Assembly (NCBI GenBank): GCA_037142915.1 | Contig: JBAWZR010000002.1 | Span: 1-41,894 of the forward strand | Length of the DNA stretch: 41,894 nt | Source: Candidatus Moraniibacteriota bacterium | GTDB taxonomy: Bacteria; Patescibacteriota; Minisyncoccia; Moranbacterales; UBA1568 | Direction of reading: 5' to 3' | Part shown: one piece after another, positions 2,629-27,505 of the stretch | How positions within the stretch are numbered: position 1 is the stretch's first letter | How the letters are laid out: each line of letters begins with the position of its first letter | Position numbers and translations under genes: made by a program | The notes under the pieces: generated by a model | Told to the model about the DNA's origin: nothing | What the model saw: the letters and a program-made list of their open reading frames with translations, nothing else | Database searches by the model: none

Positions 2629-3576
2629 ATGGAGAATTTATTGGAAAATAGAATCGTTATTACTTCGGGTTTTCGGTTTATTGATATAGACGCTTTTGCT
2701 TGTATTTACGCATATCAGGAATTGTTGCGTTTACAAGGTAAGCTAGCGCAGGCGGTCATTACCGCGCCACTCAATGTGAGTATCACCAAAAAGTATCGAG
2801 CACTGAATTTTTACGCGAAGGAATTTGTTGCGTCTGATGTGGACCAATTTGTTGTCGTTGATGTTTCTGACCCGGAGCAGATCGAGGGGTTTGTTTCAGC
2901 AGAGAAAACAGTATATATTTTTGACCATCATCCCGGATTCGAATCCTTTTGGTTTGACCGGATCGGTAGCGACGCTATTATAGAGCCGATTGGCGCGGCC
3001 GCGACACTCGTTGTCCGAGAATATCACAAGGCGAATTTCTTTTCGAAAATCTCTCCTCTGGCGGCCGAGCTTTTGGCGGTGGCGATACTTTCGAACACGC
3101 TCTTTTTTCAAGCGAAGATTTCTACTAATGAAGATAGGGAAGCCTATGATGAACTCAAAAAAATATTTCACGCTCCCAACGACTTCGAACATCGGTATTT
3201 TTCCGAAGTTCAGAGAGGTATTGAGTCGGAATTTCAATCGGCACTGCGGGATGATTCCAAACGCTTTGACGTGAACGGACACTCTCTGTTTATCGCTCAG
3301 CTCGAAGTCTGGAACGAACTCCCGATTATCAATGACCGACTGAAAGACGTGCGAACTTTTCTTGAGAATACGACTGATAAATGTGCTTTTCTGAATCTTA
3401 TAGGGCTTGAAATTGGAAGTAATGTACTTGTTTTTCGCGATGCCGAATCACTCGTATGGGTGAGGCAATGTTTCCCTGAATTTGAGTATGACTTGGAAAA
3501 TAATACCGCGAAGACGCCGCATGTTATGCTTCGGAAGGAAATTATCCCGCGTCTCCTGAGCGGTCCTATTGAGTAA
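2629..3576 (+). CDS. DHH-family phosphoesterase
   Basis: 315-aa ORF with the ordered DHH motifs: FIDIDAF (DxD), VVVDVSD and IFDHHPG (DHH). I recognised no GGGH/DHHA1 motif. Confidence 0.75.
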   Translation: MENLLENRIVITSGFRFIDIDAFACIYAYQELLRLQGKLAQAVITAPLNVSITKKYRALNFYAKEFVASDVDQFVVVDVSDPEQIEGFVSAEKTVYIFDHHPGFESFWFDRIGSDAIIEPIGAAATLVVREYHKANFFSKISPLAAELLAVAILSNTLFFQAKISTNEDREAYDELKKIFHAPNDFEHRYFSEVQRGIESEFQSALRDDSKRFDVNGHSLFIAQLEVWNELPIINDRLKDVRTFLENTTDKCAFLNLIGLEIGSNVLVFRDAESLVWVRQCFPEFEYDLENNTAKTPHVMLRKEIIPRLLSGPIE

Positions 3577-3588
3577 TCAGTACGAAAT

Positions 3589-4827
3589 ATGTTTTTCCTT
3601 TTCAGGTTGGTACAAATGGCGTGGAAGAATTTGTTGGCGGCCAAGACGCGGACTTTTTTGACCATCCTCGGTATCGTGATCGGTATCGCTTCGGTGCAGA
3701 TCGTGCTTTCGATAGGCGAGTCGGCACAGCAGCTTATCCTTGGAGAAATCCGCAATGTCGGTTCAAACTTGATTGGTGTTTTACCTGGTGCGTCGGACGA
3801 AAAAGGTCCGCCTGCATCGGTGTTTGGTGTGGTGACGACGACGCTCAAAGCGAGTGATATGGAACGAGTGGCGCGCGAAACTCCATCAGTTGCGGAGTGG
3901 AGTGGTTATGTGAGCGGTTCGGCCACGGCTAAATTTGAAAGTCAGTCTTATAATGTGAGCTATCAGGGTGTATCGGCAGAGATGGCGAGTGTTGAGAATA
4001 TCACTGTAGCCAAGGGACGCTTCTTCACCTCTGAAGAAAATCAGGGTCTGGCCAAGGTGATCGTGTTGGGTTCGGAACGAGCGAAGGATCTTTTTGGTGG
4101 TAATAATCCGATCGGTGAGCGGTTGAGTTTCGGCAAGATTACCGTGGTCGTGATCGGTGTGATGGCATCGCGTGGGGCAGGTGGCTTCTCTAATTCTGAT
4201 CAGATGGTGTTCATACCACTTTTGACAGCACAGAAATTGTTGCTGGGAATCGATTATCTTAATTTTGCGCGTCTCAAAGTGGATCAGGAAAAAAGTATCC
4301 CTGCTACCGTTGAGAATATTCGGCGGATCATCAGGGAGGAGCACAATATCAAATCGAACCAGTCGGACGATTTCTCGGTGCGCAATACGGCCGATGCTCT
4401 GAAAATTCTCACGCAGGTGACGGATGCGGTGCGGTACTTCCTCGTGTTCGTAGCATCGATCTCGTTGTTCGTGGGTGGGATCGGGATTATGAACATTATG
4501 CTCATCGCGCTCAAGCAGCGGATACGCGAGGTGGGACTCCGCAAAGCGTTGGGCGCGCGCGATGGTGATATTCAGTTTCAATTCATCGTGGAAGCGGTAT
4601 TCCTCTCGTTGTCGGGTGGCGTGATGGGTATTATCCTTGGCGTGATATTGACTTTCATCGCGGCGCTCATCATTCAGGGGATGGGGTATGATTGGCAATT
4701 TTTGTTGACTTTTTCTTCCGTGTTCGAGGCGTGTGCTGTGGCGGTGATTATCGGGATTATTTTTGGTACCTATCCGGCTCGCCAAGCCGCTAAAGTAAGC
4801 CCAATGGAGGCTCTACGCTACGAGTAG
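3589..4827 (+). CDS. ABC transporter permease, MacB/FtsX family
   Basis: 412-aa ORF. The N-terminal TM is AWKNLLAAKTRTFLTILGIVIGIASV. A large periplasmic loop follows, then a C-terminal FtsX-type 3-TM bundle (REVGLRKALGAR ... FGTYPARQAAKVSPMEALRYE). Confidence 0.9.
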   Translation: MFFLFRLVQMAWKNLLAAKTRTFLTILGIVIGIASVQIVLSIGESAQQLILGEIRNVGSNLIGVLPGASDEKGPPASVFGVVTTTLKASDMERVARETPSVAEWSGYVSGSATAKFESQSYNVSYQGVSAEMASVENITVAKGRFFTSEENQGLAKVIVLGSERAKDLFGGNNPIGERLSFGKITVVVIGVMASRGAGGFSNSDQMVFIPLLTAQKLLLGIDYLNFARLKVDQEKSIPATVENIRRIIREEHNIKSNQSDDFSVRNTADALKILTQVTDAVRYFLVFVASISLFVGGIGIMNIMLIALKQRIREVGLRKALGARDGDIQFQFIVEAVFLSLSGGVMGIILGVILTFIAALIIQGMGYDWQFLLTFSSVFEACAVAVIIGIIFGTYPARQAAKVSPMEALRYE

Positions 4828-9061: not shown

Positions 9062-9074
9062 TTTCAGTATACCA
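9062..9074 (-). promoter_or_regulatory. Extended -10 promoter (TGgTATACTGAAA on the minus strand) for the 9044-5385 operon
   Basis: The minus strand reads TTTTTTTGGTATACTGAAAGC. This is the same TGnTATACTG(A/G)AA block seen at 22171, 29728 and 32739. Confidence 0.45.
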
Positions 9075-9122
9075 AAAAAAGAGATAGTCGTCATTGCGCT
9101 GTTAGTATGATAAAATACCCGC

Positions 9123-9196: not shown

Positions 9197-10384
9197 ATGA
9201 AAATACTTGTTGTCGCACCGACCCCGTTTTTTTCTGATCGGGGAACGCATATCCGAATACTCGAGGAGGCTTTGGCTTTGGAGCGATTGGGACATACTCT
9301 TATCATAGGCACTTACCATATCGGGCGTGATATCCCGCCGCAGGTGCACACGGATATTGATGTTCGCCGGATTCGCCGGTGGGTGTTTTGGTACAAAAAA
9401 CTCGAAGCCGGCCCTGACTGGCAGAAGATCATCCTTGATATTATGTTGATCCGCAAGGTGTTTTTCCTCGCGCGAACAGAACACCCCGATATCATTCACG
9501 CTCACCTGCACGAGGGTGCGCTGATTGGGTGGATCGTGCAGAAGGCATTGTTTTGGCGTAAGATGAAACTCGTGACGGATATGCATGGGAGTTTGACCAA
9601 GGAGATGGTATCGCATGCGTATCTGCGAGGGAATTGGCTGCGGGCGATATTCAATCGGCTCGAATGGTGGCTCGACAATCGTGGCGATATCGCGGTGACG
9701 AGCTCATGGGAGAACACACTCGAAGTGAGCGCTCATCGGCCGTCAGCCACGACGGAGACGATTCTCGATGGGGTGAATCTCGCCTATTATCGGAGTTTGC
9801 CGATGAAGGGCGAGGCGCGGAAACGCTTCAATATTCCACGGGAGAAAGTCATCGTCGCGTATACCGGCGCGTTCATCCCCAACAAGGGCATCCAACATAT
9901 GGTAGATGCTTTTTCGCGGGTATATGAAGCCTGCCCTGAAGTCCATTTCGTCATCGCGGGATTTCCGTTGGATATGATTCGATCACTCCTTGACGCGCAG
10001 GTGTGGAAACAATCCTCAACGATTATCAGTCCTTTGTTGTATTTCAATTTGCCGACACTCTTGTGGGCGAGTGATATCGGCGTTGATCCCAAGGACACCG
10101 GGACACATCAGGCGAGTGGCAAGACGCTACAATATATGGGCGCCGGGTTGCCGATTGTATGCTTCGAGACGACGAACAATCGGGAATATCTGGCAGGTGG
10201 TGCGGAGTACGCGAGCGAAGTGACGGCCGAGAGTTTGGCAGATGCGATCATCCGATTGGTGCGCGACCCAAAAGCACGGGAGGAGAAGGGGCTGATCAAT
10301 CACCGGCGCGCCGAACTGTTCAGTTGGGATGCCTCGGCAAAAAAACTGGAGGGGATTTATAAACAAGTGTTGAAGAGAAAATAA
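9197..10384 (+). CDS. Glycosyltransferase, GT4 family (GT-B fold)
   Basis: 395-aa ORF. The N-terminus MKILVVAPTPFFSDRGTHIRILE and the C-terminal E-x7-E-like region (KTLQYMGAGLPIVC...) are typical of group-1 glycosyltransferases. Confidence 0.9.
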   Translation: MKILVVAPTPFFSDRGTHIRILEEALALERLGHTLIIGTYHIGRDIPPQVHTDIDVRRIRRWVFWYKKLEAGPDWQKIILDIMLIRKVFFLARTEHPDIIHAHLHEGALIGWIVQKALFWRKMKLVTDMHGSLTKEMVSHAYLRGNWLRAIFNRLEWWLDNRGDIAVTSSWENTLEVSAHRPSATTETILDGVNLAYYRSLPMKGEARKRFNIPREKVIVAYTGAFIPNKGIQHMVDAFSRVYEACPEVHFVIAGFPLDMIRSLLDAQVWKQSSTIISPLLYFNLPTLLWASDIGVDPKDTGTHQASGKTLQYMGAGLPIVCFETTNNREYLAGGAEYASEVTAESLADAIIRLVRDPKAREEKGLINHRRAELFSWDASAKKLEGIYKQVLKRK

Positions 10385-10394
10385 ATAAAATAGT

Positions 10395-12350
10395 ATGGAT
10401 TTTGAAAAACCTGCATCGCCCACACCAGAACAAATGAAAACTGAAAGACAGACCCCGCTTCGTTCGCAGGAAGATATTCATCTGGAATCTCCGGTCGAGC
10501 AGCCGACACCAGCGGTTGATTATGAGGCATTGGAGGCCGAGTATGATTCAACTGTTACCGAGATGGAGGCGAAACTTGGACCATTGAGTGATGAGGTCAA
10601 GCAGGAACTGCATCAGAGTATAGTCGGTGATGCGCCGAGGGTGAATGAAATGGAAGATGCGAAAGAATTCAGCAAGACTTATTCTCCCCGAGAGCGGTCG
10701 CTGCTTGCCGAGAAGATTCAAGGTATGCGGGTGAAATATTTTAAGCAGGAGAATACGGCGAAGCAAATAAATGAAGAACGGCAACCAAAAAGGGAGGAAG
10801 CGGAAGCAAAACTCGAGGTTCTTAGGGTTGAGGCTGCGGAGGTTCATGAGAAATTAGACGAGCTTGATGCAGTGATGAGTAGGCGGAAGTTCGAGGTTTT
10901 CGGAAAGGTTCTTGATTTCACTTCACAAAAAACGAAAAAGGAATGGGAGACCTACGATGCATTGCGTCAACAGGTGAATGAAGAGATGGCAAAAGAAAAG
11001 CAGATACTGGCGTCAGCGGAGGAAGTCGTTGTTGAAGATACGCTGTTGCGGGAATCACGGAGTGAATTGACAAGTTTTTATAAGGAGCAGGAAGAAATAA
11101 AAAATATCTACGAGAGTGAGGATGACTTGCGAGATGTAGAAAAAGTTTCCCGCGAAAGGAATCTCGTGTTTTTCCATGCTATGTCCTTTGAAGGTTATAG
11201 AGCTCTTGGCGTTTTTGAGAATAATCAAATGGTAGACGCTGATCGTTTGGATAATGAGACGAGGATGAAGCTGCTTATAGGACTTGACCCAACTATTTCT
11301 GTTTCTACCAAGCGATTGGATTCTTCAAAACCGGAGGAAAGCGGGACACTATACCCTGCAGGTGTCCTATTGAAGGGTGGCCGTATTATGAGCGCCTATA
11401 GTGGAGATGGGATGACACAAGTTCAGAATGTCTTTGCCAAGCAGGCGGAATATGACCAAACACTCAAATCGAGCGTGGTACATGAGAATTTTGGGAAGCG
11501 TTTGGATGCGGCAATCACTCGGACTACATCAGAGGAAGAATATGGAATAAATGAAGAAGCTCCTTACAATGAGCTTATTGTGGAAAATCCGGAAATCGCC
11601 GCGTTAGCAATCAATCTTGATCATGAGGCGTTGAAGATATCTCCCGAGCGTATCGCCTCTATCGGCGCAGAGCTAGAGAGACTGTCGATTGAATTCGGTA
11701 TCCCAGTGTATGGTATAAGAGAGGGAAAGATTTTGGATATGAAAAATGGTGGGCAGGAAGTCTCTCTCGATAGTGTATTGGATTTTGGAATACAAAAGAG
11801 TGCTGAGGAACGGCTGGGGATGGTTCGGGAGGCAGTGGAACAAGGCGTGCTGGCTACTAGAGGAGTTCGAGAATATTTGGAGGCGTATTCTGTTGGGGTT
11901 AATGTTATGAACCCCGATACTTTTTCAGCACTCAATTATTCTTTGCATGATTTGATTGGGAATGAACGGAATTTTGAAAAAATTATCGAAAGGGTTCGAG
12001 GAAAAATTGATTATTTGGAGCAATCTATTCGACTCAATGAACAGCAGGAATCTTCAGAATCTGATGATACAAAGAACCAAACGGAAAAATATAAAAAACT
12101 TTTAAAGGAAGCAACTTTTCTTTTATACGGTCTTTCCGAAACATCTGAAGTTAAAAACAATACCGCGCTGTCTGGTGATATGACAGCAGTCATTGATCAA
12201 TCTTTCGGAGTGGAACAATGTCGTAATTTCATAGAAACTCACCGTCAGAATGATAAGAAATTGTGTCTTATATTAAAGGATTTCCCTCCCGATATTCAAA
12301 AACGGATGAGGGCGCTTGGTGCGAAGGAGGAAGATACCTTTGATTTTTAA
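10395..12350 (+). CDS. Hypothetical 651-aa protein: acidic disordered N-terminus, coiled coil, unknown globular core
   Basis: A long uninterrupted ORF begins 10 nt after the GT4 stop. It has no TM segment or signal peptide. Residues about 100-250 are E/K-rich heptad-like sequence. The core carries H..Y..E-like motifs (see findings). Confidence 0.8.
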   Translation: MDFEKPASPTPEQMKTERQTPLRSQEDIHLESPVEQPTPAVDYEALEAEYDSTVTEMEAKLGPLSDEVKQELHQSIVGDAPRVNEMEDAKEFSKTYSPRERSLLAEKIQGMRVKYFKQENTAKQINEERQPKREEAEAKLEVLRVEAAEVHEKLDELDAVMSRRKFEVFGKVLDFTSQKTKKEWETYDALRQQVNEEMAKEKQILASAEEVVVEDTLLRESRSELTSFYKEQEEIKNIYESEDDLRDVEKVSRERNLVFFHAMSFEGYRALGVFENNQMVDADRLDNETRMKLLIGLDPTISVSTKRLDSSKPEESGTLYPAGVLLKGGRIMSAYSGDGMTQVQNVFAKQAEYDQTLKSSVVHENFGKRLDAAITRTTSEEEYGINEEAPYNELIVENPEIAALAINLDHEALKISPERIASIGAELERLSIEFGIPVYGIREGKILDMKNGGQEVSLDSVLDFGIQKSAEERLGMVREAVEQGVLATRGVREYLEAYSVGVNVMNPDTFSALNYSLHDLIGNERNFEKIIERVRGKIDYLEQSIRLNEQQESSESDDTKNQTEKYKKLLKEATFLLYGLSETSEVKNNTALSGDMTAVIDQSFGVEQCRNFIETHRQNDKKLCLILKDFPPDIQKRMRALGAKEEDTFDF

Positions 12351-12369: not shown

Positions 12370-13635
12370 ATGGATCTGTGGCTCATAAAACTTGGTAAGG
12401 CATGGTCAGCTCTCAAGGAGGAGGGTTTGTGGCGGGGTGGGACGCGTATCACGAAATCGTTTTTTAATTTGTTTCACCATGTCGGTTCGGGCGATGTACT
12501 CTTCATCACGGGCGGACTGGGTGACAGCGCGCGGTATCGCTCCTGGCATGTGGTAGAGGAGCTGCGATTGCAGGCGGGTTTGCGGTGCTCGATCACCGTG
12601 CAGGATAACCCGTTCCTCTCAGGGTACGCGGACAAGTTTTCGATATTTATTTTTCATCGGGTGATGTATACGCCGAGCGTCGCCAAACTCATAGAAAAAA
12701 TCAAAGCGCAACACAAGACGATTATTTTTGAAACAGACGATTTGGTATTTGACGCGAAATATCAGAAGGATATGGATCACTTCCGCAAGATGAATACCTT
12801 TGAACGTAAGCAGTATGCCGGAGGTGTCGGCGCGGAAATCCTCGCCGATCCGTATGTGGAAGTGGCCACGACGAGTACGGATTTTCTCGCTGAGAAATTA
12901 CGAGAACAGAATAAAACAGTTTTCGTCGTGCCAAATAAATTGTCGCAAGAAGATGTGCAGACGATGGATGAGATTTTGGCTGCAACCAAGGGTGCGGCGG
13001 GTAGAGACGCAAGATCTTGCATCTCTACAGAATCGGAAAACGATGTGATCATCGGTTACTTCAGTGGTGCCAAGGGGCATGATAAAGACTTTGCCGTAGT
13101 GACGGACGTGTTATTGGAGCTGTTTCAAAAATACCCGCAGTTGCGATTGTTCGTCGCCGGGCCACTGGTGCTGGATGAGCGTTTACTGGCATTAAACAAA
13201 AGTGTATCAGGAGTAGAGACGCAAGATCTTGCGTCTCAAGAGAAGAGAATAATTCAAGTTGCCTATGTCCCTCGAGCAGAACACTTCGCCAATGTCGCGC
13301 ATATCGATATCAATGTCGCGCCGCTCGAAGTCGGCAATCCCTTTTGCGAGTCGAAGTCGGAGTTGAAGTTTTTTGAAGCCGGATACCTCGGCGTGCCGAC
13401 GGTGGCCAGTGCGACCGATCCGTTCCGACGGGCGATCGAGGATGGGGTGGATGGTTTTGTCGCTATGAAGAGCGACGAATGGAAAGAGAAACTCTCGCGT
13501 TTAATAGAAGACAAAAATTTACGATCGCAAATGGGTGAACGGGCGCACGAAAAAGCTGTGACCAAATACACTACCACTAACGCTCACAACGAGGAATACT
13601 ATGCTTTTTTGAAAAGCAAGATTATTTCTGCTTGA
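12370..13635 (+). CDS. Glycosyltransferase (GT-B fold, group-1-like) carrying two in-frame palindromic insertions
   Basis: 421-aa ORF. The C-domain shows IIGYFSGAKGHDKDF...LFVAGP...FFEAGYLGVPTVAS...DGVDGF. Confidence 0.85.
   Translation: MDLWLIKLGKAWSALKEEGLWRGGTRITKSFFNLFHHVGSGDVLFITGGLGDSARYRSWHVVEELRLQAGLRCSITVQDNPFLSGYADKFSIFIFHRVMYTPSVAKLIEKIKAQHKTIIFETDDLVFDAKYQKDMDHFRKMNTFERKQYAGGVGAEILADPYVEVATTSTDFLAEKLREQNKTVFVVPNKLSQEDVQTMDEILAATKGAAGRDARSCISTESENDVIIGYFSGAKGHDKDFAVVTDVLLELFQKYPQLRLFVAGPLVLDERLLALNKSVSGVETQDLASQEKRIIQVAYVPRAEHFANVAHIDINVAPLEVGNPFCESKSELKFFEAGYLGVPTVASATDPFRRAIEDGVDGFVAMKSDEWKEKLSRLIEDKNLRSQMGERAHEKAVTKYTTTNAHNEEYYAFLKSKIISA
13001..13028. repeat. Palindromic repeat copy 1 (GTAGAGACGCAAGATCTTGCATCTCTAC), inside a CDS
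   Basis: 28-nt palindrome with one mismatch, translated as GRDARSCIST. Confidence 0.85.
13213..13237. repeat. Palindromic repeat copy 2 (GTA-GAGACGCAAGATCTTGCGTCTC), inside a CDS
   Basis: The 22-nt core (13216-13237) is a perfect palindrome. It is translated in the other frame as VETQDLASQ. Confidence 0.85.
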
Positions 13636-14422
13636 GAGCGAAAACTCCTGCGAAAATCGCTAGCATAATGAGGACGATGGTACCGCCGGTGGAGAGATTG
13701 AAGTAGAACGAGGCGAAGATGCCCGAGACGACAGAGAAGAGTGAAACGATTTCCGCGTAAATGATGGTTTGCAAGAAATTCTTTTTGAGTTGAAGCGCCG
13801 TGATGACCGGGATGACGATGAGCGCTGCGATGAGGAGTACGCCGACGATGGGGATGGCGAGGGCGACGGTGAGTGCGGTGAGCACGATGAGGATGGTATT
13901 GACGAGTCGAGTCGAGACACCGCTGACTGTGGCCGCTTCTTCGTCGAAGGAGATATACACGAGTTGTTTGTAAAAAAATGCTACTATCAGCGCTACGATA
14001 ATGGCTAAAATTGAAATAATACGCACATCACTGGCCGTCACGGTCACGATGCTGCCGAAGAGATAATTGAAGAGGTTTGAGTTGAATCCGTGAGCGAGGC
14101 TGAGGATGACCACAGCGAGCGCGAGGCTGCCGGAGAGGAAGAGCGCCAAGGCTGATTCGCCGTAGACTCGTTTGGAGGTGCGGAGTCGTTCGATGCCGAG
14201 TGACGCGAGCACCGCCGTGACGAGTGCCGTCAATACGGGATTGATTCCAAGGAAGAGGCCAATCGCAATCCCTGCCAGCGATACATGGGCGAGCGTATCC
14301 GCGATGAGCGAATAGCGTCTCAGCACGAGGAAGATGCCGATGAGCGGTGCGATGAGGGCGATCACGATGCCGGCCTCCAGCCCTCGTATGATGAAACCGT
14401 ATTGGAAGATATTTTCGAGCAT
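13622..14422 (-). CDS. Metal (Zn/Mn-type) ABC transporter permease, ABC-3 family
   Basis: 266-aa polytopic ORF. FQYGFIIRGLEAGIVIALIAPLIGIFLVLRRYSLIADTLAHVSLAG is characteristic of ZnuB/MntB/TroC-type permeases. Confidence 0.9.
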   Translation of the reverse strand: MLENIFQYGFIIRGLEAGIVIALIAPLIGIFLVLRRYSLIADTLAHVSLAGIAIGLFLGINPVLTALVTAVLASLGIERLRTSKRVYGESALALFLSGSLALAVVILSLAHGFNSNLFNYLFGSIVTVTASDVRIISILAIIVALIVAFFYKQLVYISFDEEAATVSGVSTRLVNTILIVLTALTVALAIPIVGVLLIAALIVIPVITALQLKKNFLQTIIYAEIVSLFSVVSGIFASFYFNLSTGGTIVLIMLAIFAGVFALKQK

Positions 14423-15196
14423 TTATTTGTGATAATGATGATGGAGGATGTGGACATCTTTGCCACGAACATTGGAGGGTGTGCTCTCCGCGAGATAATC
14501 CTCGGGCGAAGTGTGGCAGACGAGGGTTATATTGACACAGACGATATGCATCACTTCTCGGACTACCCGTTCGATATCGTGGGACACGAGCACGAGTGTG
14601 AGATCTAATTCTTCATTGAGCTTTCGGAGGAGTGTATAAAACTCGTTTTGAGTTTCTTGATCTACACCGGTTGTCGGTTCATCCAAAAAGATGATTTCCG
14701 GTTGGTTGACCAGTGCTCGAGCGATGAAAACTCGTTGTTGTTGCCCGCCGGAGAGATCACCGATGAGTCGGTCTTTCTGTTTCCATAACCCGACTTTTTC
14801 GAGCGCGTCCCGTACTGCTTCCTTATCATCTCGTGTGGTTCGTTGGAAAAGTTTTTGATTTGAGTAGCGACCCATCAGTACGACTTCGAAGACACTGGCG
14901 GGAAAGTTGGCATCAAAATGGACGGCTTTTTGGGGGACATAGCCTATTTTTTGCCAATCCTTGAATTCTCGAAGATCCTGCTCAAATAATTTTACGCTGC
15001 CGGTTTTTGGCGTGAGGAGATTGAGCATTATTTTGAGTAGGGTCGTTTTGCCCGCTCCATTTGGGCCGATGAGTCCGATATAATCGCCCTGATGGATTGC
15101 GAGCGTTATGTCTTTCAAGACATCTCCGTTGTCATTGTACGAGAAGGAGACATTTTCGATCTCGATGATGTTTTGTGTGTGGTCTATTTGGCGCAT
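14423..15196 (-). CDS. Metal ABC transporter ATP-binding protein (ZnuC/MntA-like)
   Basis: Walker A GPNGAGKTT, signature LSGGQQQRV and Walker B IIFLDEPT are present. The His-rich C-terminal tail reads HILHHHYHK. Confidence 0.9.
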   Translation of the reverse strand: MRQIDHTQNIIEIENVSFSYNDNGDVLKDITLAIHQGDYIGLIGPNGAGKTTLLKIMLNLLTPKTGSVKLFEQDLREFKDWQKIGYVPQKAVHFDANFPASVFEVVLMGRYSNQKLFQRTTRDDKEAVRDALEKVGLWKQKDRLIGDLSGGQQQRVFIARALVNQPEIIFLDEPTTGVDQETQNEFYTLLRKLNEELDLTLVLVSHDIERVVREVMHIVCVNITLVCHTSPEDYLAESTPSNVRGKDVHILHHHYHK

Positions 15197-16122
15197 TGTA
15201 GTGCTGTTTGTAAATTAGAGAGGTTGTTTTGCATGACGGTCAGATAATTTTCCCCTTGGGCGAGTTCGGTATCGCTGAGTCCTTCGAGCGGATTGAGTAC
15301 GAGTGTTTGTGCGCCAATTTCAGTCGCGATCGTTTGGGCGAGCTTGGGGCTGGCGAGGCTCTCGAAGAAGATATATTTCACCGAGTTGGCTTTGGCGAAT
15401 TGTACGATGCCGGCCAGTTGCTGCGGTGATGGTTCGGCATCGGGGGAGAGTCCGGCGATGGCGACCTGATTTAATCCGTAAGTTGTGGCGAGGTAGCTAA
15501 ATGCCATGTGCGAAGTAATGATGTTTTTTTCTTTACAATTACTCAACCCTTGTTTATAGGCTCTATCTAAATCATTTAGTTTTGATTTTAGAATATCGGC
15601 GTTCGTCTGATAATACACTGCATTAGCGGGGTCAGCTTGTTCAAATCCCTGCACGAGCTTCGCGACGATTTTCTCTGCCAATGGTGGGGCGAGCCAGATA
15701 TGGGGGTCGATGCCGGTCTGACCGTTTTCTGTTACCTGTTGAGTAGCGAGGCCGTCGCTCACAGTGATGATGGTTGTTTTTCCGGGGTCGATATTTTGTT
15801 TGATAGTGTCGCCCCAACCCTCGAGGTTGCTCCCATTGAGGATGATGAGTTGGCTATTTTCCATCGTGGCCATATCCTGCGCGGTTGGTTCGTAGTCGTG
15901 CGGTTCGGCACCGGCTGGCACTATATTGGTCACATGTGCTTTATCGCCACCGATTTGCTGAGCGAAGAAGGAGAGTGGATACAAGCTGGCCACTACTTGG
16001 ATTTTCCCTGAGTTGAGAATTTGAGAGGACGGTTTTGTTTGTCTTAACAAAACAAAAACTGCCAGACTAATGAGAAGTAGCCCGAGAACAAAAATGATGG
16101 TAATGACAGTATTTTTCGACAT
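15184..16122 (-). CDS. Metal ABC transporter substrate-binding protein (ZnuA/TroA family)
   Basis: 312-aa ORF with an N-terminal TM/signal segment. GAEPHDYEPT and DPHIWL metal-ligand motifs are present. It overlaps the ATPase gene by 13 nt. Confidence 0.9.
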   Translation of the reverse strand: MSKNTVITIIFVLGLLLISLAVFVLLRQTKPSSQILNSGKIQVVASLYPLSFFAQQIGGDKAHVTNIVPAGAEPHDYEPTAQDMATMENSQLIILNGSNLEGWGDTIKQNIDPGKTTIITVSDGLATQQVTENGQTGIDPHIWLAPPLAEKIVAKLVQGFEQADPANAVYYQTNADILKSKLNDLDRAYKQGLSNCKEKNIITSHMAFSYLATTYGLNQVAIAGLSPDAEPSPQQLAGIVQFAKANSVKYIFFESLASPKLAQTIATEIGAQTLVLNPLEGLSDTELAQGENYLTVMQNNLSNLQTALQCAK

Positions 16123-22041: not shown

Positions 22042-22114
22042 GGGTCGTTAGCTCAGTCGGTAGAGCAGTTGCCTTTTAAGCAAACGGTCACTGGTTCGAA
22101 TCCAGTACGACCCA
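22042..22114 (+). tRNA. tRNA-Lys (anticodon UUU)
   Basis: The 73-nt sequence folds by hand into a cloverleaf. The acceptor stem is GGGTCGT/ACGACCC, the D stem GCTC/GAGC, the anticodon loop CTTTTAA, the T arm ACTGG-TTCGAAT-CCAGT, and the discriminator A. CCA is not encoded. Confidence 0.95.
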
Positions 22115-22126
22115 CACAACTTATAC

Positions 22127-22158
22127 AAAAAAACACCTTTGAGAAATGGTGTTTTTTT
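22127..22158. terminator. Intrinsic terminator after the tRNA (A-run/T-run flanked, potentially bidirectional)
   Basis: AAAAAAACACC-tttgagaaat-GGTGTTTTTTT. Confidence 0.75.
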
Positions 22159-22170
22159 GTACATTGCGTG

Positions 22171-22183
22171 TGCTATACTGAAG
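22171..22183 (+). promoter_or_regulatory. Extended -10 promoter TGcTATACTGAAG for the GT4 gene
   Basis: It belongs to the same block family as 9062(-), 29728 and 32739. A GAGGAG SD lies 8 nt before ATG 22209. Confidence 0.45.
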
Positions 22184-26152: not shown

Positions 26153-26185
26153 AGTATTCCCAGTTAATATTTGAATATTCAATAT

Positions 26186-27424
26186 ATGTTGCAAGAATTG
26201 CCACCCTCACTTTCTTCTATGGGACGCTCGCGTTTAACTGGTTCTGGTGCGCCTCAGAATAAAAAACCGTCACCGAAAAAATTTAGTCGCGGGAAAAAGA
26301 TAGCTTTGGGAATAGTCACCGTGCTCCTTATTGTGGGCGGGCTTGCGTTTTGGAAAGCGGATTCAGTCATCAAAAAGATCTCCCCGAATGGTGGTTTGTT
26401 TTCCAGCTTGGTTCATTCGTTACCGGGTGTGAGCTCGACGCTCCAAGGTGAATCCGATGGTCGGATCAATATCCTCTTGTTGGCGATGCGCGGTGAAGGC
26501 GTGGAGGGTGGAGGCACGCTGGCCGATACGATCGAGGTACTTAGCTTGCATATCGCCAAAGATTCCAATGACACGAGTCGGGCATCGTTAGTTTCGATTC
26601 CGCGTGACTTGTATGTCAGTGTCCCAGGGAAAGACGAAAAGAGGAAGATCAATGCGGTGTATGCTTTGGGGAATGAGCGCGATGCCAAGCGCGGTGGTAT
26701 GGACGATATGAGGAAGGTCGTCGGTGATGTGACTGGTCTGCCAATCCAGTATGCCGTAGTGATTAACTATCAAGGATTTACCGATCTTGTGAATGCTTTG
26801 GGCGGGATCAATGTGCATCTTGATGCCGCGTTTGATGAGAATGTGCAATTCCAGCAGGCGCAGGTCTGCGACCCGTATGTTTTTACTGTTCCGACGAACC
26901 CGGTTCAGTATGAGACGAAGTACGGTACTCGTCCGAGTGGTCGGAAGTATATTTCTAAACAATATCCGCTTTGTTACAATAAAGATGAGGAATGCGGAGG
27001 AAACTTTGCCTTGCCGGCCGGAGACAATCACTTGGATGGTATCGGTGCACTCTGTTTTGCTCGGGCACGATACACCACGACTGACTTCGATCGGGCGCGT
27101 CGACAGCAGGAAGTGATCCAATCAGTGCGGCAAAAAGCGACGAGTCTTGGGACGCTTACCGATATTTCGACAGTTAACAAAATGCTGGGTGCTTTGGGAA
27201 ATAACCTGAAGACGGATCTCGAACCGTGGGAGATGGAACGATTTTTCGAGCTATACAAGAACAAGTTCTCAGCAGTCACTCCGAAAACTGCAGTGATTGA
27301 TGATTCGAGTTCACCTACCGGATTTCTGTATGCGCCTGCAATGACTCCGGAAACCGGTTATATTCTGCTTCCGAAGGGTGATACTTATGATCAGATCAAA
27401 GCGTATTTCCAAAAGATACCGTAA
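26186..27424 (+). CDS. LytR-CpsA-Psr (LCP) family glycopolymer transferase
   Basis: I prefer the ATG at 26186 to the TTG at 26171. The ORF has a TM anchor, then INILLLAMRGEG...TLADTIEVLSL...VSIPRDLYV...KINAVYALG...GGINV, the ordered LCP motifs. Confidence 0.85.
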   Translation: MLQELPPSLSSMGRSRLTGSGAPQNKKPSPKKFSRGKKIALGIVTVLLIVGGLAFWKADSVIKKISPNGGLFSSLVHSLPGVSSTLQGESDGRINILLLAMRGEGVEGGGTLADTIEVLSLHIAKDSNDTSRASLVSIPRDLYVSVPGKDEKRKINAVYALGNERDAKRGGMDDMRKVVGDVTGLPIQYAVVINYQGFTDLVNALGGINVHLDAAFDENVQFQQAQVCDPYVFTVPTNPVQYETKYGTRPSGRKYISKQYPLCYNKDEECGGNFALPAGDNHLDGIGALCFARARYTTTDFDRARRQQEVIQSVRQKATSLGTLTDISTVNKMLGALGNNLKTDLEPWEMERFFELYKNKFSAVTPKTAVIDDSSSPTGFLYAPAMTPETGYILLPKGDTYDQIKAYFQKIP

Positions 27425-27432
27425 GGGTTTTT

Positions 27433-27457
27433 GTAGAGACGCAAGATTTTGCGTCTC
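27433..27457. repeat. Palindromic repeat copy 3 (GTA-GAGACGCAAGATTTTGCGTCTC); probable terminator hairpin
   Basis: The stem is 9 bp (GAGACGCAA/TTGCGTCTC) with loop GATT. It lies 9 nt after the LCP stop, followed by a T-rich tract. Confidence 0.8.
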
Positions 27458-27478
27458 ATGATGGTTTTCTTTCAACAC

Positions 27479-27505
27479 AGAGACGCAAGATTTTGCGTCT
27501 CTACC
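27479..27505. repeat. Palindromic repeat copy 4 (AGAGACGCAAGATTTTGCGTCTCT-AC)
   Basis: This second tandem copy lies 21 nt after copy 3 and immediately upstream of the GT2 start. Confidence 0.8.

Follow-up and report, generated by a model that had tools for sequence, protein, structure and literature searches.

In-frame GTAG-tagged REP elements in a glycosyltransferase gene of a Candidatus Moraniibacteriota bacterium

A 41,894-nucleotide (nt) stretch of DNA from a Candidatus Moraniibacteriota bacterium (contig JBAWZR010000002.1 of assembly GCA_037142915.1; hereafter, the window) contains a gene for a GT-B (GT4-like) glycosyltransferase at positions 12370 to 13635 of the plus strand, and within this gene lie two copies of a palindromic element, both read through in frame. 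Judged by alignment with orthologs, the two copies are insertions, not native sequence. The letters of the element identify it as a GTAG-tagged repetitive extragenic palindrome (REP) of the type associated with subclass 2.4 of TnpA_REP, the REP-associated tyrosine transposase (RAYT), and identify its intergenic doublet in the window as similar to a REP doublet forming hairpin (REPIN). We consider it probable (about 0.8) that REPs of the class belonging to this HUH/Y1 single-stranded DNA transposase inserted into the gene in frame and were tolerated.

The palindromes and their host gene

A reading of the window made from its sequence only (the sequence-only reading) had reported that a palindrome occurs twice in this gene, with 184 nt in between, without breaking the frame. 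A pattern search and the open reading frame (ORF) agree with that report. The 22-nt palindrome GAGACGCAAGATCTTGCGTCTC is exact at 13216 to 13237 and has one mismatch (GCaTCTC) at 13004 to 13025; a loop variant, with GATT for GATC, is present at 27436 to 27457 and at 27480 to 27501. These four copies compare with a mean of 0.00 across 100 dinucleotide-preserving shuffles of the window, and looser pattern searches of the window gave no copies beyond the four. With its flanks, the complete unit is GTAG-AGACGCAA-GATY-TTGCGTCT-CTAC. Copy 1 (13001 to 13028, inverted repeat I7) is a double-foot unit, GTAG-AGACGCAAGATCTTGCaTCT-CTAC, with one stem mismatch. Copy 2 (13213 to 13237) is a single-foot unit, GTAG-AGACGCAAGATCTTGCGTCT-C, with a perfect stem. 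Both feet (GTA...TAC) are thus present in copy 1 only, copy 2 having the 5' GTAG alone, and the two units are separated by the 184 nt from 13029 to 13212. None of these units is assigned to a strand. Copy 1 is translated in frame 3 as G211-RDARSCIST-220 and copy 2 in frame 1 as V282-ETQDLASQ-290, which are the peptides given in the sequence-only reading.

The other two copies form an intergenic head-out dimer at 27433 to 27504 (inverted repeat I3), composed of GTAG-REP, a 22-nt spacer, and REP-CTAC. Its 25-nt arms are 92% complementary, and the GTAG foot is only on the outer side of each unit; the intergenic hairpin of the same element that had been noted at this place is a head-out dimer. It starts 8 nt past the stop codon of a LytR_cpsA_psr gene (26171 to 27424) and ends 18 nt ahead of the ATG of a GT2 gene (27523), and the sequence 3' of it, CCGATACAAGAATATTC, has no T-run. 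The predicted RNA folds have free energies of -15.6 kcal/mol (z, -2.6) for copy 1 and -14.3 kcal/mol (z, -3.4) for copy 2; in the dimer, the two units are predicted to pair into a single hairpin of -44.6 kcal/mol (z, -9.8).

The unit has the same sequence on both strands, and its three frames read VETQDLASL, a stop codon followed by RRKILRLY, and RDARSCVS. Because the GTAG foot puts a TAG stop codon in frame 2, only frames 1 and 3 can persist in genes, in either orientation. Among the matches listed from other genomes, 13 copies are internal to genes and in frame, six of them in the VETQ frame, seven in the RDA frame, and none in frame 2. That the two copies in the glycosyltransferase gene are read in two different frames had been singled out in the sequence-only reading. 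Both frames are indeed seen, but their use is not remarkable, since they are the sole stop-free frames.

The ORF that contains both copies is uninterrupted over 421 codons. Its 421-amino-acid (aa) product matches the Pfam families Glycos_transf_1 (PF00534), Glyco_trans_1_4 (PF13692), and Glyco_trans_1_2 (PF13524). The AlphaFold2 model, made with 34 orthologs as input, has a mean predicted local distance difference test score (pLDDT) of 85.6 and a predicted template modeling score (pTM) of 0.86, and the top Foldseek matches of this model in the PDB are PimA, HepE, BshA, and MshA (E, ~1e-12), all of which are GT-B/GT4 enzymes. The product has the two Rossmann-like domains and the GT1/GT4 C-terminal signature of a GT-B enzyme, encoded in an intact ORF. 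It also keeps every column that is invariant in alignment A1, which consists of the window protein and 33 orthologs (34 sequences). The named homologs are all from Candidatus Moranbacteria/Moraniibacteriota, within Patescibacteria, the candidate phyla radiation (CPR).

Insertion status was read from alignment A1 and from a codon alignment of the window gene with its orthologs at loci L121 (protein P0002) and L122 (protein P0003). The region from 13183 to 13245 (plus strand) is longer than its counterpart in each ortholog by a net 45 nt (15 codons). This 15-residue gain around copy 2 is confined to the window protein; none of the 33 orthologs has it, not even P0002 and P0003, which are ~79 to 80% identical to the window protein. 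Copy 1 has an ortholog in L121, GTAGAGACGCAAAATCTTACGTCTCTAC, which occupies the same place between homologous flanks and is read in the same frame; no trace of it is present in L122, an ortholog that is ~80% identical. Because L121 has copy 1 and no ortholog has copy 2, the insertion at site 1 is older and shared, and that at site 2 is lineage specific. The earlier suggestion that the palindromes were inserted, and are not native to the gene, holds for both copies.

Copy 1 lies in a hypervariable interdomain linker (12958 to 13044, plus strand; alignment columns ~235 to 310), which spans from the N-domain block ending in NKLSQED to C-domain strand beta-1, IIGYFSG. The length and sequence of this linker differ in all orthologs, and between anchors mapped by tblastn the median length is 57 nt versus 87 nt in the window. 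Copy 2 lies in a loop of the C-domain. In the model, the copy 1 peptide is predicted to precede C-domain strand E226-231, and the copy 2 peptide to lie after helix H270-278 and ahead of strand E294-297. The mean pLDDT is 48 for residues 211 to 220 and 43 for residues 281 to 290 (versus 85.6 for the whole protein); these are the sole internal 10-residue blocks below 50. Residues 282 to 290, exactly the copy 2 peptide, are the sole run of three or more residues with a pLDDT below 50. The surface-linker positions proposed for both peptides in the sequence-only reading are borne out by this placement among strands and helices and by these scores.

Several Moranbacteria orthologs have palindromes in the same linker that are unrelated to the REP. 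In L143 (10602 to 10651) the palindrome is in frame and has a 24-bp stem (z, -11), and in L197 (10605 to 10640) it is likewise in frame (z, -8). The one in L172 (10602 to 10624) recurs at 9062 to 9086 of that locus, 1.5 kb upstream, and there are others in L188 (10587 to 10612) and L126 (5987 to 6008). All five are in frame and perfect, with stems of 10 to 24 bp, and lack the GTAG foot. Across 82 orthologous genes there were six perfect hairpins of at least 10 bp, and four or five of them were at residues 196 to 229. Judged by the sequences of these orthologs, hairpin elements of differing kinds have repeatedly landed in the interdomain linker, a hotspot that is explained most simply by relaxed constraint. 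The long linkers in L123, L127, and L133 encode the peptides CHSELVEES...SLDYARDDN, CHSDRSGGISRSLGDARDD, and CHSERSEES..., which resemble translated imperfect palindromes; the RNA folds of these linkers have z values of -3 to -4.4, and their motifs probably stem from further repeat families that are common in CPR genomes.

Distribution of the element and its association with RAYT genes

Scanning one genome per species for the core GAGACGCAA-N4-TTGCGTCTC gave at least 120 loci, and scanning metagenomes for the exact loop variant gave at least 119. The matches listed come from more than 10 phyla, among them Bacteroidota, Chloroflexota, Planctomycetota, Myxococcota, Ignavibacteria, Desulfobacterota, Gracilibacteria, Parcubacteria, and others. 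These matches comprise 152 copies, of which 94 have GTA directly 5', 95 have TAC directly 3', and 56 have both; the chance expectation is ~1/64. The loops of the 152 copies are variable (AATT, TGCA, GATT, and more), and head-out doublets with complementary inner spacers are frequent among them (e.g., in L014, L015, L018, L027, L063, L099, and L120). None of the metagenome loci listed (at least 119) is like the window outside the repeat.

The element is also read through in frame in other genes. Such copies are present in genes for AcrB-family pumps (L034 and L090), an HlyD protein (L086), an MmeI-like restriction-methylase (L119), and the AIR-synthase-like protein of a Parcubacteria genome (L052). 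A PurL gene (L099:1509-4634) has an in-frame doublet that is translated as GRDAIFCVS...EDAKYCVST, and a peptidase U32 gene (L037:5375-7339) has the REP in frame at two separate sites. The Pfam matches are intact on either side of each insert (AcrB, PurL, U32, MmeI-like, AIR-synthase-like, and HlyD). The sequence-only reading had pointed to similar peptides, of the forms RDA..C.ST and VETQ..ASL, in other uncultivated bacteria. Such peptides do exist elsewhere: RDA..CVST and VETQ..ASL are found in real genes of other phyla, including two CPR genomes. A full-text literature search for the RDA/VETQ-type peptide signatures gave no match. Two large secreted proteins (L013:80-4006 and L020:3-3566) have the REP near the C terminus, and the sequence right after it resembles what we take to be a C-terminal sorting domain.

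RAYT-like ORFs were found with the motif screen PNH[IF]H...WQ.R[FY]...YIxxNP and then with the family profile. Such ORFs adjoin or surround the REP in L008, L078, L104, L108, L326, L332, L340, L379, and L398. They match the NCBIfam model REP_Tyr_transpos with significant E values (1e-13 to 1e-17) but scores below its 80-bit equivalog cutoff, and one of them additionally matches Pfam Y1_Tnp. Their motifs (NH[IFV]H, WQ, and YIxNNP) and their length (~190 aa) are the values tabulated for subclass 2.4 (PMC6006769). Of the matches listed, 5 of the 120 genome loci and 6 of the 119 metagenome loci selected by their REP have a RAYT gene detected by the family profile, with REPs flanking it or inside it. 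The reciprocal test gave a strong association: 71 of the 80 loci fetched by RAYT alignment have GTAG hairpins, with 232 hairpins in total versus 7 in shuffled sequence. Three RAYT loci, L222 (Marivirga lumbricoides), L232, and L264, have the window-type core with the loop AATT. RAYT genes flanked by this same REP type, the arrangement called a REPtron, exist in other genomes.

REPs inside the RAYT gene itself were found again in L078, L108, L177, L222, and others. In about 40 of the 80 RAYT loci (L203 to L282) a GTAG hairpin lies ~225 to 350 nt into the gene, in many cases just after the HUH motif and in frame. The RAYT family is encoded in CPR genomes, namely, those of Moranbacteria (L177), Magasanikbacteria (L215), and Parcubacteria (L265). 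The Moranbacteria protein (L177:97-657) is a RAYT-like protein of the subclass 2.4 type, and its gene has two in-frame copies (377 to 397 and 495 to 515) of a different hairpin, GAACAGGGCAnTGCCCTGTTC. One metagenome locus (L348:1600-4800) has tandem overlapping RAYT-like ORFs or fragments, with window-type REPs repeated approximately every 448 nt (1993, 2441, and 2889) and again at 3833 and 4395, and has the look of an amplified REPtron array.

On a reading that we consider doubtful, the presence of the same 22-nt core in more than 10 phyla including CPR would mean horizontal spread of subclass 2.4 REPtrons into ultra-small genomes. Such spread, if true, would run against the prevailing picture of REPs and RAYTs as species specific and vertically inherited. 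RAYT proteins that share a REP 10-mer cluster weakly, with 46.7% identity within a type versus 41.5% between types; this weak clustering by REP type is therefore insufficient to argue for either coevolution or horizontal transfer.

Tolerated insertion and its alternatives

As we picture the course of events, REP units, or head-out dimers like that at 27433 to 27504, would fold into single-stranded hairpins and be copied in that form to other sites. The majority of REP insertions into genes would kill gene function and be lost. The two survivors would be those that entered permissive GT-B loops with a net length that is a multiple of three and in a stop-free frame. The double-foot form of copy 1 is what would be expected after a central deletion of a dimer, and the encoded peptides of 9 to 10 residues are most likely passive, disordered surface loops. 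We infer that a RAYT mobilized the elements in this genome, and the inserts presumably lack a function.

A number of observations weigh against this account. The REP makes up just 25 of the 45 extra nt at site 2. The orthologs gave the insertion status of copy 2, but the exact boundaries within 13183 to 13245, which the sequence-only reading had hoped to obtain from such alignments, are not resolvable from the protein and codon alignments. The three loci (sites 1 and 2 and the dimer) share no common target motif and have no target-site duplication. Searching the window with the family profile (hmmsearch) gave no RAYT gene, nor was one found across the ~9.7 kb of adjoining contig; together these make up the ~52 kb accessible from this organism. 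The REP itself is sparse, with only 4 units at 3 loci in the ~52 kb of host sequence (41.9 kb of window plus 9.7 kb): the 9.7 kb that L402 adds upstream of the window has no REP copy, and L406 gained no sequence past the window. In 1.27 Mb from 80 other Moranbacteria there are 29 GTAG hairpins, about the chance level. Finally, copy 1 matches its ortholog in L121 at 25 of 28 positions, whereas the identity of the two genes is 75.4% overall and 54.9% at third codon positions. The probability of this conservation is 0.06 relative to the gene average and ~1e-4 relative to the third-position rate, so that, as far as this sequence comparison goes, the excess conservation of copy 1 appears to fit pure neutral tolerance imperfectly.

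This conservation is also an argument for an alternative in which the intragenic REPs have been exapted, their mRNA hairpins slowing ribosomes at the boundary of the Rossmann-like domains or modulating mRNA stability, or their loops serving the protein. The computed folds of the intragenic hairpins are stable as RNA, and the unrelated strong palindromes of L143, L197, L172, and L188 are in the very linker that hosts copy 1. However, relaxed constraint alone predicts a hotspot in a hypervariable linker, neither insert is present in most orthologs, and the peptides are predicted to be disordered. Moreover, copy 1 in the window and copy 1 in L121 each have their own stem-breaking G>A change, giving an A.C mismatch in the mRNA strand; because the two lineages have different stem-breaking changes, the stem pairing is not strictly kept. 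No RNA sequencing (RNA-seq) run containing the gene is listed. We regard exaptation as unlikely. Somewhat broader, and in our opinion doubtful, is the idea that the intragenic REPs are actively maintained and that the linker is a recurrent landing pad for unrelated palindromes across Moranbacteria with a functional consequence, such as cotranslational pausing between the two Rossmann-like domains or a site bound by either TnpA_REP or some host factor. The sequence-only reading had left it that the gene tolerates or exploits the hairpin; tolerance is the simpler reading of the two, and exploitation is not demonstrated by these data.

It is very improbable that the element is some other miniature transposon, mobilized by a DDE transposase, or the remnant of another system such as a clustered regularly interspaced short palindromic repeat (CRISPR) array or an intrinsic terminator, with the GTAG foot a coincidence. 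The lack of a RAYT gene in the accessible sequence of the organism would fit such an origin, as would the place of the intergenic copy, which lies between two codirectional genes, a position typical of a terminator. Nevertheless, the GTAG foot is present in ~62% of the 152 copies, among the matches listed, versus 1.6% expected, and in the reciprocal test RAYT genes are strongly associated with such hairpins. The candidates fail individually as well. Miniature inverted-repeat transposable elements (MITEs) are 70 to 300 bp long, carry terminal inverted repeats, and show a target-site duplication, whereas the singletons are units of 25 to 28 nt without terminal inverted repeats around an internal segment and without a visible flanking direct duplication. 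A CRISPR array has three or more regular repeats with spacers of ~30 nt, whereas here there are just two adjacent units with a 22-nt spacer, the other copies being dispersed. An intrinsic terminator is rejected because a T-run follows none of the copies. Of the earlier description of the element as REP/MITE-like, the REP part therefore stands, made more specific as the GTAG-tagged, subclass 2.4-associated type, and the MITE part, in the sense of an element with terminal inverted repeats, does not.

An assembly or chimera artifact, or a decaying pseudogene, can be dismissed, even though assemblers often break or misjoin at repeats: Logan contigs from the lake-water runs X1 and X2 (12871 to 13500) and X3 (12797 to 13365) span both copies and ~600 nt around them without gaps, and because these three separate runs reproduce both inserts with 0 differences, the inserts are not an assembly artifact, while the ORF is open, all of the family-invariant residues are kept, and the predicted fold is confident. 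The sequence-only reading had named an artifact as an outcome that would overturn it, and the runs speak for the inserts.

The same metagenomes gave other observations at the repeats. One contig of run X4 stops at 12992, immediately ahead of copy 1, and in runs X1 to X4 short extra contigs pile up at 12992 to 13031 and at 13213 to 13239. The k-mer depth in the bins containing the REPs is ~2 to 12 times the flanking depth. Further contigs have REP doublets with 21-nt spacers and the REP in other contexts, and are not assignable to the Moranbacteria host. In a fragmented public metagenome-assembled genome (GCA_964476385.1), the two contigs with window genes are only ~2.3 and ~2.5 kb long. For metagenome assembly, then, the REP is a repeat at which contigs seem to break.

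Gene neighborhood and known systems

The glycosyltransferase gene is located in a gene cluster for cell-envelope glycans, whose other members include GT4, GT2, Wzy_C, and LytR_cpsA_psr genes, as assigned by Pfam. Between a GT4 gene (9197 to 10384) and the REP-bearing gene is an ORF of 651 aa (10395 to 12350) without a Pfam match; because its two neighbor genes adjoin directly in L121 and L122, this ORF appears to be a lineage-specific addition. On the other side, a three-gene cassette on the minus strand (13622 to 16122), made up of an ABC-3 permease (Pfam), an ABC ATPase (with a Walker motif in its translation), and a third ORF, separates the glycosyltransferase gene from the genes that come next in L121 and L122. 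The 3' end of the permease gene has a 14-nt overlap with the end of the glycosyltransferase gene at its stop codon.

The window has other inverted repeats. Between the ORFs at 1570 to 2457 and 2629 to 3576 are nested AT-rich inverted repeats (I1, I2, I5, and I6, at 2509 to 2611), which are unrelated to the REP. A tRNA gene (22042 to 22114) is directly followed by an inverted repeat with 28-nt arms and A/T runs (22113 to 22172), which has a terminator-like look. An Rfam scan of the window at the gathering threshold gave the tRNA only, and no family covered the hairpins.

By itself, the finding reveals no new mechanism. It extends the GTAG REPs, and their "decoration" of proteins, to Patescibacteria/CPR, and it explains peptides of the forms RDA..CVST and VETQ..ASL, which recur in many phyla and matter for annotation, as translated REPs. 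For protein engineering, it points to two GT-B loop positions that accept 9 to 15 extra residues.

The closest known elements are the GTAG REPs, which are palindromes of 20 to 40 bp with a terminal GTAG that occur as singletons and as head-out (HH) dimers 20 to 100 bp apart (PMC3733652). Di Nocera, De Gregorio, and Rocco (2013) described intragenic GTAG and CGTC REPs that are read through and proposed their mobilization by RAYTs; two REP sites are occupied in some genes, such as the uvrA and uvrB genes of Opitutus terrae, Thioalkalivibrio, and R. conorii (PMC3733652). The window elements are of the same unit type and likewise include an HH dimer, intragenic copies that are read through, and a gene hit twice. 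Their units are 25 to 28 nt long, with stems of 9 to 12 bp, a 4-nt loop, and free energies of -14 to -16 kcal/mol; all four copies have GTAG/CTAC at one or both ends, and the dimer is head-out with a 22-nt spacer. The stem is at the long end of the published range, and its sequence is absent from the text of PMC3733652, a comparison that excludes the family consensus sequences in Figure 1 of that paper. That survey covered 8 phyla with emphasis on DNA repair genes, whereas here the host belongs to Patescibacteria/CPR and the gene encodes a glycosyltransferase.

Subclass 2.4 corresponds to RAYT group 4 (Quentin et al. 2018, PMC6006769; Bertels et al. 2017, PMC5581495). Its REPs have long perfect stems and "double-foot" units, GT[AG]G...C[TC]AC, and are scattered over many phyla, and in-frame REPs occur in protein linkers and loops, notably inside tnpA_REP itself, the latter having been described as a trait both notable and peculiar to this subclass (PMC6006769). 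TnpA_REP processes REPs, which are nonautonomous, as folded single-stranded DNA (PMC8266576, PMC6006769). Copy 1 shares the double-foot form. The REPtrons of subclass 2.4 include a RAYT gene, whereas none was found in the ~52 kb from this organism, and the methods of PMC6006769 treat REPs as species specific, whereas the 22-nt core of the window is found in more than 10 phyla, among the matches listed.

REPINs (Bertels and Rainey 2011) are described as reaching hundreds per genome and as passed on vertically, together with one RAYT, in Pseudomonas and enterobacteria (PMC3116915). Only the dimer at 27433 to 27504 has their structure, two inverted REPs with a short spacer that form one long hairpin; the intragenic copies differ in being singletons. 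The Rickettsia palindromic elements (RPEs; Ogata et al. 2000, 2002), as they are summarized in PMC3733652, include RPE-1, which is 100 to 150 bp long and encodes 30 to 50 residues, and the CGTC-tagged RPE-4 and RPE-6; some RPEs were equated with CGTC REPs (PMC3733652). As far as that summary goes, the likeness is that of in-frame palindromes in functional genes of a host-dependent bacterium with a small genome, each adding a surface peptide. The window unit differs in its length of 28 nt, its GTAG tag, its unrelated sequence, and its phylum, and it is not an RPE on this description. In our literature search there was no description linking REPs with CPR. In-frame REPs, even two per gene, are already known from the GTAG and CGTC REPs (PMC3733652), subclass 2.4 (PMC6006769), and the Rickettsia RPEs; new here are the CPR host and the glycosyltransferase target.

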